A stretch of 63,926 bases of DNA, counting the filler, from Aduncisulcus paluster (lineage: Eukaryota): NCBI GenBank assembly GCA_024181965.1. It is 41 parts of 41 records of this genome, joined end to end, with 100 filler letters (N's around TTAATTAATTAA, not from the genome) between each part and the next. Parts side by side here need not be neighbours in the genome. Positions count along the whole stretch, not along the records: positions 14,037 to 16,146 come from BQXS01001399.1; 40 more parts are not named here. The stretch is one strand, 5' to 3'. Below are positions 3,053-16,146 of the stretch, in pieces. The notes under the pieces are model-generated. The model was not told the DNA's origin. It ran no database searches and worked only from the letters and a program-made list of their open reading frames with translations. How positions within the stretch are numbered: the first letter of the stretch is position 1; every line of letters starts with the position of its first letter. The position numbers were made by a program, and so were the translations under genes.

Positions 3053-4140
3053 ATGAGCCAATCGACCAAACTCCTCGAGCCCTACAAGCTTGGCGCGCTG
3101 ACCCTGTCGAACCGCCTGGTAATGGCGCCGCTGACGCGCAACCGCGCGCCGGCGCCGAACTTCGCGCCGGGCCCGCTCGCGGTGGAGTATTACGGCCAGC
3201 GCGCGTCGGCCGGCCTCCTGATCACCGAAGCCAGCCAGGTCTCGCAGCAGGGCCAGGGCTATCAGGACACGCCCGGCATCTATTCCAAGGAGCAAGTCGA
3301 GGGCTGGCGCAAGGTCACCGATCGCGTGCATGAGCGCGGCGGCCGCATCTTCATCCAGCTCTGGCATGTCGGCCGCATCTCGCATGTGGCGCTACAGCCG
3401 AACGGCGGCGCACCGGTGGCGCCGAGCGCGATCCGCGCCAAGACCAAGACCTTCGTCAACGGCACCTTCGCCGATGTCTCCGAGCCGCGCGCGCTGGAGC
3501 TGTCGGAGATCCCCGGCATCATCGACGATTTCAAGCGCGCCACCGCAAACGCGATTGCCGCCGGCTTCGACGGCGTCGAAATCCACGGCGCCAACGGCTA
3601 TCTGCTCGACCAGTTCGCCAAGGATGGCACCAACAAGCGTACCGACGCCTATGNNNNNNNNNNNNNNNNNNNNAAGTGTCCAAGGCAGTGGTGGGCGAAG
3701 CTGGCGGAGACCGCACCGGCATCCGCATCTCGCCGGTGACCCCAGCCAACGATGTTTCCGACAGCAATCCGCAGCCGTTGTTCGACTATATCGTCGATCA
3801 TCTCAATGCGCTGAAGCTGACCTATATCCACGTCATCGAAGGCGCGACCGGCGGCCCGCGCGACAACGCGCCGTTCGACTACGCCTCGCTGCGCAAGCGC
3901 TTCAAGCAAGCCTACATCGCCAACAACGGCTACGACTTCGCGCTGGCGGAGAAGGTGCTGGAGGCCGGCGCTGCCGACCTGATCGCGTTCGGCAAGCCGT
4001 TCATCTCCAATCCTGATCTCGTCGAGCGGCTCAAGGCCGGCGCTCCGCTGAACGAATGGGACAAGGCGACCTTCTACGGCGGCGGCGCCAAGGGCTACAC
4101 GGATTACCCGACGCTGAAGGCAACCGAAGCGGCGGAGTAA
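3053..4140 (+). CDS. nemA: Old yellow enzyme / alkene reductase, spans a 20-N gap
   Basis: NRLVMAPLTRNRA, FIQLWHVGRISH, GFDGVEIHGANGYLLDQF, FISNPDL, GYTDYP. Confidence 0.93.
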
Positions 4141-14036: not shown

Positions 14037-14304
14037 GGAAGTATATTACACCATGTCTCCGTTTATGCACGCCGATAAAATGAAAACACCACTTTTGCTT
14101 ATTCACGGCGAAGCAGATAACAATTCGGGAACATTTCCGATTCAAAGCGAGCGTTATTTTAATGCTTTAAAGGGAATGGGAGCAACCGTTCGTCTGGTAT
14201 TCCTGCCCAAAGAAAGTCATGGATATGCAGCCCGAGAATCCATTCTGCACATGCTTTGGGAACAGGACCAATGGCTGGAAAAATATGTAAAAAACAAAAA
14301 ATAA
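14037..14304 (+). CDS. S9 prolyl oligopeptidase family peptidase, C-terminus (Bacteroidota)
   Basis: TPLLLIHGEADNNSGTFPIQSER...LPKESHGY (catalytic D and H). Confidence 0.9.
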
Positions 14305-14329
14305 TTCTGAAACCGGATTATTAAAAACA

Positions 14330-14362
14330 ATTCAGCGGGTGACTCAGAGTCACCCGCTGAAT
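14330..14362. repeat. Perfect 16-bp-arm inverted repeat between convergent genes (terminator or REP-like)
   Basis: ATTCAGCGGGTGACTC-A-GAGTCACCCGCTGAAT. Confidence 0.8.
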
Positions 14363-14391
14363 ATAAACTCTACTCTCTTTACCGGTCTGTT

Positions 14392-15117
14392 TTATTTCCC
14401 TTCATCGTTTTTTTTCGCACTACGACCCTCGCGCAGCGCCAGTGTATTGTTATATTTTTCTATTCGCTGATTCAATTCATTCACAAAGCCAGAATACGCC
14501 TCTTCTCCATTTACAATTACAAGAGCGCCTATTCGTTCGGTAATGGTTCGGTAGACCTCGTCAACCTGCCTGCGGACATCTTTCATACTCAGTTGCGTCT
14601 TTCCCGAATCTTCAGCATAACGTTCCTTCATCAACGTTTCAAAAGTAGTATTGGCAGTTTGCAGTTCAATCAGCCATTCGCCAATATTTAACTGGCTGAC
14701 ATCCGCGGCATAATCATTCTTGAGGTCGGAAAGCAGGCTGTTAATGGCAGCAGTTTGCTCATCATAAGATTTGACATTGATGTTTCCATAATGATCGATT
14801 GCAATTTCAATGCGGTTGGCAGACACTTTCACTGCGGAGTTATAATGATTGGTGGCTCCTTTTACCGTATCGCATATACCGCGGTAAAGCGAATCGCGAT
14901 AATGGTCGGCTTCGGCCAGCTCGCTGGTAACTGCACTTTTCCTGATTACATTTAGTGCATTGCTTTCATCGGTATATAAAGGTTCGTAAACCGCCCAGGC
15001 CGCTTCAATGCCCAGGGCGGCAGGAGTATATTGCTCCACCAGCCCTTTAAGTTCGGTTTGAAATTGAAAGTGTTCGTCGTTGCGAAGGCTTCTTAGTTTT
15101 ATAGATAAAATACTCAT
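14392..15117 (-). CDS. DUF6261 family protein (HagB/HagC-like, helical), complete
   Basis: LRNDEHFQF, IRKSAVTSELAEADHYRDSLYRG, YDEQTAAINSLL, FVNELNQRI; basic C-terminal tail. Confidence 0.8.
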   Translation of the reverse strand: MSILSIKLRSLRNDEHFQFQTELKGLVEQYTPAALGIEAAWAVYEPLYTDESNALNVIRKSAVTSELAEADHYRDSLYRGICDTVKGATNHYNSAVKVSANRIEIAIDHYGNINVKSYDEQTAAINSLLSDLKNDYAADVSQLNIGEWLIELQTANTTFETLMKERYAEDSGKTQLSMKDVRRQVDEVYRTITERIGALVIVNGEEAYSGFVNELNQRIEKYNNTLALREGRSAKKNDEGK

Positions 15118-15205
15118 AATACGTTTATTTTTAAATTTATATAAATAGAAAAGCTACATTTTTACTCTTTTTTTCAAGAAAAATTCGACCAAAGTATCGC
15201 TGGAA

Positions 15206-15373
15206 CTTTCCCCCACAGCGGAAAGTATGTTTTAGGTCTCGAACAAGGTTTCCTTCATGGGGGAAAGTCTGCCCGAGCCCTCGTTTGAGCTTTCCCCTAA
15301 AGTGGAAACCTTGCGCGAAAGGAAATTTATACTTTCCCCAAAAGGAGAAAAGCTGCGCGAGACATGGCACTGC
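15206..15373. repeat. Array of four 42-bp units, each a 20-nt palindrome plus a 22-nt variable spacer
   Basis: Units start at 15206, 15248, 15290, 15332: CTTTCC-cccacagc-GGAAAG, GTTTCC-ttcatggg-GGAAAG, CTTTCC-cctaaagt-GGAAAC, CTTTCC-ccaaaagg-AGAAAA. Confidence 0.85.
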
Positions 15374-15481
15374 ATTTCGACAAAAATTAATGCTTTATTT
15401 GAGGTGAATGTGTTCAAGTTACAGATACTGATTTGGTTGCTGAAAGAATTAACGGGAAAAGAACAGAAAGGTTACACGGGT

Positions 15482-15505
15482 GATGCGATTTGTAATCGCA
15501 TCTAC
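15482..15505 (-). repeat. GTAG-headed REP-like hairpin
   Basis: Minus strand reads GTAGATGCGATT-ACA-AATCGCATC. Confidence 0.55.
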
Positions 15506-15881
15506 ACCCCATTTTCTGTTTCCAGGATTATTTTATCCATTTCCCTCCAGCCGCATAATGAAATTATGTTTACCTTTAAAAAATAAAAACCAAAAACGTA
15601 TGCACTCACCCGCAAAATACAAGAAGTTTCATTTATAATCCTATTTTATTGGAAAAGATACAATTGTGCATGCGATAGAAAAAATAATGTAGGAAAATGA
15701 GGTGTTAGACGTACGTTAGCAACAATCCCACTACTGGTCGAAAAACAGTTGAGTTTTTGTGTTAACGATAAATTGGAGAAGTAGAAATTAAGTAAGGGTA
15801 AGAAAGATATGAAATCATTAAAGTGCATAATATCAGGAATATAAATTTACCGTTAGTCGGAAGCTAAAAAAATCCGAAGCA

Positions 15882-16146
15882 ATGAATAAAATAGGATTAT
15901 TATTTTTAATATTTTTAAGCTTAACGACTATTAGTAAAGCTCAAAATGAATATGTGAAATTTTTAGAGGACAATAATTGTGAGCCCTCTGCATATATGGA
16001 AAATCTTTTTAAAGAAAAGGACTTAGTCGTTTTGTGTGAAAGAATGCACCCGGAAATGACACAATATGATTTCATTATGGGAATTATCGCACAAAAATGG
16101 TTTATTGACAATATCGGAAATTTAATTATAGAAGTAGCAACCCGGT
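15882..16146 (+). CDS. Secreted hypothetical protein, 3' truncated
   Basis: Signal peptide MNKIGLLFLIFLSLTTISKA-Q. Confidence 0.7.

Follow-up and report, generated by a model that had tools for sequence, protein, structure and literature searches.

The stretch of DNA analysed here, 63,926 nucleotides (nt) filed under the eukaryote Aduncisulcus paluster and hereafter called the window, consists of about 50 short contigs strung together with linkers of the form N44-TTAATTAATTAA-N44. One of these, a contig of 2110 base pairs (bp) at window positions 14037-16146, carries a gene of the family DUF6261 that is preceded by a tandem array of four palindromic 42-bp units. Three features are present on this contig: the 3' end of an S9 peptidase gene, the DUF6261 gene convergent to it, and the start of a divergent gene that matched no known family. 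The DUF6261 gene and the elements upstream of it are the following:

14392..15117, minus strand: DUF6261 gene, encoding 241 amino acids (aa), with an all-helical body
15088..15105, minus strand: codons 5-10 (S-I-K-L-R-S), proposed base-reading segment, singled out by the covariation of residues 7 and 9
15118..15193, minus strand: A/T-rich segment of about 76 nt from the array to the start codon, with an A-rich stretch before the ATG; it may serve as promoter or as untranslated leader
15194..15373, minus strand: array of four 42-bp units, from repeat finding, motif count and Tandem Repeats Finder (TRF)
15208-15223, 15250-15265, 15292-15307 and 15334-15349, minus strand: 16-bp dyad cores, with half-sites read from the sequence

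The product of the gene belongs to DUF6261, as an earlier note on this sequence had proposed: it matches the Pfam model PF19775 over residues 64-216 with 151.6 bits, against a curated cut-off of 27 bits (E = 2.1e-44). We recovered 116 homologues, the best of which, the protein itself aside, is 70% identical. Because its relatives are proteins of Draconibacterium and Prolixibacteraceae (at most 70% identity), the contig is probably bacterial DNA co-assembled with the eukaryote; an identical protein is filed as a hypothetical protein under the eukaryote assembly. No signal peptide is evident when the protein sequence is read by eye. The AlphaFold2 model (mean predicted local distance difference test score, pLDDT, 88.6; predicted template modelling score, pTM, 0.56) consists of ten helices with residues 1-7 extended, and its mean pLDDT over residues 1-10 is 89. 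The ESM Atlas, queried with the homologue P0005, returned only unnamed clusters below 0.9.

The array spans 77-260 nt upstream of the DUF6261 start. Repeat finding recovered a single family with four copies starting at 15206, 15248, 15290 and 15332 (spacings 42, 42, 42), 62-79% identical to the reference copy, which reproduces the exact period that had been read from the sequence. The palindrome STTTCC-N8-GGAAAS is exact at 15206, 15248 and 15290 and degenerate in the fourth unit, again as described before; with one mismatch allowed, it has 4 matches in the 63.9-kb window vs 0.62 expected, and none of 100 shuffles reached 4. TRF misses the array at default settings and, at a laxer setting, reports it at -244..-77 from the ATG (period 42, 4.0 copies, 59% matches). 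The consensus dyad is TTCCCC..GGGGAA, of the general form TTC-n1n2n3-N4-n3'n2'n1'-GAA, and in each unit one half-site has stayed good (TTCCCC, or on the opposite arm GGGGAA) and its partner has decayed. Like the linked arrays of the family, it is made of at least three tandem units of 41-42 bp, lies less than about 700 nt upstream of the gene and has the orientation of the gene.

Distribution and anatomy of the arrays

Arrays of this kind accompany the family as a whole. We collected 80 DUF6261 loci from species genomes, 81 with the one in the window, and scored an array wherever a tandem repeat with a period of 40-43 bp and at least 2.5 copies lay within 700 nt upstream of the start. Such an array was found at 68 of the 81 loci, and the 471 kb examined held four others of 40-43 bp outside the zones upstream of DUF6261. 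Two of these four strays are accounted for by an inserted gene that split the array from a DUF6261 gene whose frame is still open, namely a DUF772 transposase gene in locus L015 (1219-2930) and a GxxExxY / PD-(D/E)XK_3 gene in locus L027 (556-1538). Metagenome loci with at least 350 nt of upstream DNA gave the same picture (57 of 59 with an array). Altogether, 131 loci had enough DNA upstream to be judged, and in 119 of them there is an array of 41 or 42 bp with 3-9 units, mostly 3-6, so that the absence of arrays from other DUF6261 loci, which the earlier note had named as fatal to its proposal, is not what is observed. The period is 42 in 89 and 41 in 39 of 128 arrays. Since a 41-nt period cannot code for a repeated peptide, the suggestion that the units encode a 14-aa repeat has to be abandoned; the open reading frame in question (ORF, 15137-15370, 77 aa) matched no family.

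The association extends to distant members and to several copies per genome. DUF6261 has 2-7 matches per genome in five carrier genomes, its loci being chromosomal, and all seven newly seen divergent paralogues from five genomes have an array of 41/42 (or 82) bp. A 41-bp array precedes the Prevotella nigrescens member, whose protein identity is 27%. In an even sample of the phylum, DUF6261 was present in 7 of 401 Bacteroidota genomes, with an array at 10 of 14 further loci. No conserved gene neighbourhood emerged among 100 neighbour proteins of 54 loci (44 further proteins were prepared and left unscanned); what is inherited as a unit is therefore the array plus the gene. No relative of DUF6261 was found in viral contigs, and a phage collection gave one partial match, without an array. 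Two identical-scoring shortened DUF6261 frames of 175 aa in genome G001 (L188 and L189) also stand without an array and may be duplicated remnants.

The P. nigrescens locus (L081, 2199-2469) shows how the array can mislead annotation. The DUF6261 coding sequence (CDS) is annotated from 2330, inside the 41-bp array, and 2469 is the position of the ATG indicated by the conserved N-terminus and the A-rich box before the start. If so, about 46 residues of the deposited 318-aa protein would be translated array, and the start would lie about 46 codons further down; knowledge of the arrays is therefore of use wherever DUF6261 starts are called inside them. Just upstream of the same array, a 120-bp repeat (1680-2075; 3.3 copies, 98% matches) overlaps an annotated hypothetical CDS.

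The array is widespread and apparently undescribed: we found no description of it in the open literature, which leaves older subscription papers on hagB and supplements outside the scope of the search. Mentions of DUF6261 there are incidental and include Streptococcus genes.

Rotation of the consensus unit of each array onto its best palindrome yielded a common frame in 70 of 112 arrays, consisting of TTC, three variable bases (n1-n3), four central bases, the complement of the three, and GAA. The TTC/GAA ends are common to most of the family and the inner bases n1-n3 are private to each locus. These inner pairs change identity from array to array but stay complementary, pairs 1-5 from the centre being Watson-Crick in 240 of 255 consensus cells. 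Mean identity to the array consensus, over 69 arrays, is 0.914 for the arms, 0.732 for the four central bases and 0.755 for the spacer, and the arms are more conserved than the spacer in 30 of 32 diverged arrays, which indicates purifying selection on the arms. The dyad loses its symmetry inwards (n3 63/70, n4 37/70, n5 21/70), the left arm deviates from consensus 114 times and the right arm 53 times, and in 27 of 70 arrays the last site is centred 86-90 nt from the ATG.

Across arrays, unit identity ranges from 52 to 98% and copy number from 3 to 9. Relatives have younger arrays in which the repetition, at up to 97% identity, extends over the entire unit with its spacer, and for this reason the spacers cannot be regarded as acquired. 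The loops and spacers of the window, previously taken for two independently variable stretches, belong to units that are decayed copies of one another. The array of the window is an old one, in which the arms are kept and the remainder drifts with only its length held; it is this drift of centre and spacer around preserved arms that produces the appearance of palindromes with variable windows. Its units with a single good half-site fit the general asymmetry between the arms.

Two further peculiarities were seen in individual arrays. In ten loci (L040, L041, L047, L051, L053, L054, L057, L058, L175 and L176), the spacers contain a second small palindrome at a distance of about 21 bp from the main dyad; its one-sided CCCC centre is conserved and its arms vary (CCGA/TCGG, CTGA/TCAG, CGCA/TGCG, TGCA/TGCA). 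In the array of locus L022, one unit carries the site of the sister paralogue clade, ATCC..GGAT, in place of CGTAC..GTACG; it could be a step in a switch of specificity or a site of cross-regulation.

Covariation of the N-terminus with the palindrome

The identity of the inner bases n1-n3 is linked by covariation to three residues, 7, 9 and 10, of the DUF6261 protein encoded behind the array. Paralogues that are 82-90% identical can have unrelated palindromes (L070, L071 and L063), and the differences between them are concentrated in residues 4-11. L070 and L071, for instance, share 90% of their residues but differ within residues 4-11, and their palindromes bear no relation to each other; L070 and L073, only 31.5% identical, both have the hexapeptide K-I-N-S-N-N and TCAGAA. 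Proteins of 31-45% identity, in front of which the spacer and leader DNA are unrelated, have both hexapeptide and palindrome in common.

This holds across the whole range of divergence. In every stratum of body identity, sharing of the 5-nt half-site rises steeply with the likeness of residues 4-10. At 90% body identity or above, the half-site is shared in 39 of 39 pairs with identical N-termini and in 0 of 9 pairs that share at most five of the seven residues. Below 50% identity, it is shared in 57 of the 195 pairs with at least four of seven N-terminal residues alike; in a permutation test the mean was 15.0 and the maximum 31, and none of 2000 permutations reached 57.

Specific residues go with specific bases. 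When each 60%-identity cluster is counted once, N10 occurs with n1 = A in eight clusters and with C in two (Fisher p = 1.6e-4), and n1 = G accompanies K10 in 5/5 and R10 in 5/7 clusters (K/R10 with G, Fisher p = 5.7e-5). K/R7 occurs with n3 = C, which is G on the other strand, in nine of nine independent clusters, and H7 with n2 = C and n3 = A in four of four. Pairings of Asn with A and of Lys or Arg with G are standard major-groove contacts. The protein of the window has polar K7 and R9 alternating with hydrophobic residues 6 and 8, and its site is TTCCCC. The same alternation of exposed variable residues (5, 7 and 9) with hydrophobic ones (6 and 8) is seen in the family, and it is the pattern expected by sequence of an extended strand lying on the protein.

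We also scanned every alignment column against n1, n2 and n3 (372 tests, 118 close pairs). The first four ranks were taken by residues 7 and 9 with p from 1e-21 to 2e-12, followed by the next column at 1.6e-7, pair-based values that shared ancestry inflates; the ranking itself is a fair test, because all columns face the same tree. Among 25 disjoint sister pairs, the site is the same in 12 of the 14 in which residues 7 and 9 are unchanged and different in 10 of the 11 in which they have changed (p = 2e-4). A trivial cause, namely a copy of the site lying inside codons 1-15, was considered and rejected, since such a copy is present for 7 of 70 sites and for 6 of 70 control sites.

Candidate function and alternatives

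From these comparisons, we consider it somewhat probable that DUF6261 recognises its own phased operator array by sequence, binding it most likely as duplex DNA, and that it regulates itself. The units of the array would be successive binding sites for the protein encoded behind them, and the side chains of residues 7, 9 and 10, carried on the extended N-terminal segment, would read n1-n3; this putative reading head would lie outside the annotated domain, because the Pfam model spans residues 64-216 only. The target would most likely be double-stranded DNA bound by a symmetric dimer. As 41-42 bp correspond to four helical turns, the bound proteins would stand on one face of the helix and be able to cooperate, and the model of cooperative operator sites four turns apart, one of three offered before, is now the best-supported reading. 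With a consensus promoter (clear in about one third of the loci) on one side and the start codon at a constant distance on the other, the array would be likely to give cooperative control of the expression of DUF6261 itself. The comparisons show the linkage of array and gene, selection on the arms and the covariation of residues with bases; binding, DNA as the target, the dimer, the direction of regulation and the start of transcription are inferences.

The Bacteroidota promoter consensus is TTTG, 18-21 nt, TAnnTTTG. On the gene strand, 22 of 63 loci have a match to at least nine of its ten positions in the 160 nt that precede the array. The controls gave 1-7 of 63, among them the opposite strand with 4 of 63 and the gap from array to ATG with 3 of 63. 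The count for the gap weakens the case for a promoter there, which the distance of 86-90 nt to the ATG would suit.

Several observations weigh against binding of operator DNA by DUF6261. The protein as a whole has neither a domain nor a fold that can be recognised as DNA-binding. Residues 1-62 matched no Pfam family in five DUF6261 members; Foldseek gave nothing at E ≤ 0.001, its best value being 0.084 in the PDB and 0.11 among viral models; searches of NCBIfam, PADLOC and PHROGs, and of PDB sequences by profile, were uninformative for DUF6261; and the protein of the window looks acidic by inspection of its sequence. The code was derived on the 70 of 112 arrays that fit the TC...GA frame, a set that excludes divergent paralogues with other N-termini. 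The inflation of pair-based p-values by shared ancestry leaves the ranking, the cluster counts and the disjoint pairs as the fair tests, and in the disjoint pairs the neighbouring residues are associated as well, more weakly (4/5 p = 0.017, 6/8 p = 0.03; range 0.017-0.04). Because these neighbours also associate, there is some block inheritance of the 5' end. Three more points bear on the nature of the target: compensated double changes in the dyad number 14, vs about 4 expected by chance; the array is probably transcribed and an RNA target possible, because the consensus promoter lies upstream of it; and the second palindrome with its CCCC centre looks hairpin-like rather than like a dimer site.

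It is these three points that would be explained by a transcribed hairpin leader, an alternative that we regard as rather unlikely. The array would then be part of a 5' leader RNA of 300-450 nt with one or two hairpins per unit, the second with a conserved CCCC loop on a varying stem in some spacers, bound by DUF6261 or a host factor for translation, stability or processing. The Watson-Crick covariation of the inner stem between arrays agrees with this, and the covariation of residues and bases would suit a protein on a double-stranded RNA stem equally well. However, none of four counts of stem mismatches (173:145, 106:90, 29:37, 48:42) reveals an enrichment of G.U relative to A.C, and of the 167 changes confined to a single arm, to be compared with the 14 compensated ones, 77 are neither G.T (48) nor A.C (42). 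The palindrome often continues to within 2 nt of the centre, which an RNA loop could not use, and a strict period of 41/42 nt is unexpected for hairpins on flexible linkers. On general structural grounds, steric hindrance makes it unlikely that n1-n3 could be read in the deep groove of an RNA stem that is fully paired. Rfam gave no real-looking match on the contig at E up to 10 and none at gathering score in the arrays of 12 loci. Duplex DNA is thus favoured by the lack of G.U preference, the predominance of single-arm changes, the fading of the dyad towards the centre and the fixed period of 41-42 bp, which is held although the unit sequences are unrelated.

Still less probable, in our view, is that the sites belong to another host-encoded factor, or are structural DNA (cruciform or bent) tuning the promoter, with the link to the N-terminus arising from block inheritance of the 5' end. 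The TTC/GAA ends and the spacer motifs CAAAC and GGCA, common to arrays of very different loci, are what such a factor would leave, as is the weak association of the residues beside 7 and 9 in sister pairs. Nevertheless, block inheritance predicts equal association for residues 4-11, whereas residues 7 and 9 lead every other column by five or more orders of magnitude, and in a separate test residues 5, 6 and 8 were without association. It would also leave aside the hexapeptide and palindrome shared by proteins of 31-45% identity with unrelated spacer and leader DNA, and the chemical good sense of the residue-base pairings. A single factor, moreover, cannot account for 2-7 private palindromes per genome.

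A neutral slippage minisatellite or a repeat like a MITE (one of the miniature inverted-repeat transposable elements), without function tied to the gene, can hardly be the explanation, for although the range of copy number and unit identity implies rapid turnover and tandem-repeat MITEs are described in Porphyromonas gingivalis (MITEPgRS 'Repeat C' and BrickBuilt; PMC2575886, PMC4596501), 68 of 72 arrays of this period lie within 700 nt upstream of a DUF6261 start, the association persists to 27% protein identity, the arms are under purifying selection, period and distance to the ATG are conserved, and the array covaries with the protein. According to these two papers, Repeat C of MITEPgRS (MITE464) has up to 14 units, and BrickBuilt has 23-nt units with reported promoter activity. 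Both resemble the DUF6261 arrays in being intergenic tandem arrays of short units in Bacteroidota with variable copy number, but they are bounded by terminal inverted repeats like those of the insertion sequence family IS5 and scattered as mobile elements. The DUF6261 arrays, in contrast, keep to a single gene family, each have a sequence of their own and covary with the protein.

The arrays also recall clustered regularly interspaced short palindromic repeats (CRISPR) and the tandem interspaced guide RNA (TIGR)-Tas systems, which likewise have regularly spaced palindrome-bearing repeats beside a gene. They differ from both in having only 3-9 units, no unique spacers, and a conserved protein-sized dyad that tracks the neighbouring protein. 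Near-identical repeats with unique spacers are absent, the units being copies of one another (59% alike in the window, at most 97% in relatives). No cas family occurs among the 100 neighbour proteins of 54 loci or on the window contig; the exclusion of CRISPR in the earlier note therefore stands as regards the repeats, and its remark on missing cas genes covers the 2.1 kb of that contig only. DUF6261 is the only family on the adjacent protein, with no Nop domain. Of the proposal that the array is processed into RNAs bound by the adjacent protein in the manner of TIGR-Tas, the adjacent protein as the binder is upheld by the residue-base covariation; the processed RNAs find no counterpart in acquired spacers, a Nop domain, cas genes or an Rfam match.

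The closest parallels in mechanism would seem to be sopC-SopB for the period and dyads and ribbon-helix-helix (RHH) autoregulators for the N-terminal reading strand. In the type Ia partition system of plasmid F, sopC consists of tandem 43-bp units, each with an inverted repeat, bound by a dimer of SopB, the product of the adjacent gene. The likeness lies in period, one dyad per unit, number of units and adjacency to the gene of the binder; unlike sopC, the DUF6261 arrays stand upstream of the gene, are chromosomal at 2-7 per genome, and come without a partition ATPase or a ParB-type gene. A type I partition pair of ParA and ParB was not found among the neighbours, which include one Mrp/NBP35-type P-loop gene (L005) and no ParB, and the DUF6261 protein has no similarity to ParB. 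In RHH autoregulators (ParR-parC, ParG, omega, MetJ, Arc), alternate side chains of an N-terminal strand read the bases, and the dimers bind cooperatively to repeats in their own promoter. Alternation of exposed and buried residues over positions 5-10 and the role of residues 7 and 9 make DUF6261 similar. RHH proteins have 45-120 residues and repeat periods of 7-20 bp, whereas DUF6261 has about 240 residues, a large helical body and a period of 41-42 bp. No RHH family was recognised in residues 1-62 of five members, and in the monomer model residues 1-7 are extended and followed by helices.

Binding of the palindromes before its own gene would give DUF6261, a rare family without assigned function, a testable molecular activity. 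If true, it would also represent a DNA-recognition module without detectable relative among solved structures, with natural switches of specificity between 90%-identical paralogues. We advance more tentatively, as a possibility that we rather doubt, that DUF6261 is a new class of re-programmable DNA binder, in which two or three N-terminal side chains would set three bp per half-site, each paralogue would form a private phased filament, a ruler of protein size would set the unit, the arrays would go beyond simple autoregulation and serve as landmarks of their locus or as bistable switches, and the codes would diverge against cross-talk.

Other features of the contig and of related loci

The remaining features of the contig are weaker matches or flank the DUF6261 gene on its 3' side:

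14053-14304: Peptidase_S9 fragment, from a family match, convergent to the DUF6261 gene
14330..14362, no strand: perfect 16-bp inverted repeat (arms 100% complementary) with 1 nt between the arms, then a T run on the gene strand
15149-15156 and 15175-15178, minus strand: weak promoter-like match, with -7-like TAGCTTTT and -33-like CTTG, respectively; 8 of 10 consensus positions
15414..15445, minus strand: weak candidate upstream promoter, with -33-like TTTC (15442-15445), a 20-nt spacer and -7-like TAACTTGA (15414-15421); 7 of 10 consensus positions

The candidate upstream promoter stands 60 nt before the array. The inverted repeat is likely a bidirectional terminator common to the DUF6261 gene and the convergent S9 peptidase fragment. 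Promoters of the sigma-54 or extracytoplasmic function (ECF) type inside the units were considered by eye and dropped, as the GG-N10-GC spacing fails across arrays. From an RNA run on the contig came one assembled piece of 367 nt (15590-15956), which lies outside the array and is uninformative on expression.

Five loci of Paludibacter type (L050, L051, L053, L057 and L072) carry a direct repeat, GTTCACTAT in two copies, in the approximately 100 nt before the array. It is followed by a terminator-like GC-rich hairpin and T run that end about 10-15 nt before the first unit, and a small transcript, or else an attenuator preceding the array, may be encoded here. Downstream of DUF6261, at about 200 nt, locus L075 has a DUF805b RNA motif (3951-3985; Rfam RF02914, 42.3 bits, above gathering score). 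Among the 100 neighbour proteins, six (L002, L003, L007, L008, L038 and L047) contain Por_Secre_tail, the C-terminal sorting domain of type IX secretion, and an IS200-type Y1 transposase adjoins DUF6261 in three loci (L010, L023 and L050). Across the window (1-63926), the contigs vary widely in composition, from AT-rich to very GC-rich pieces.

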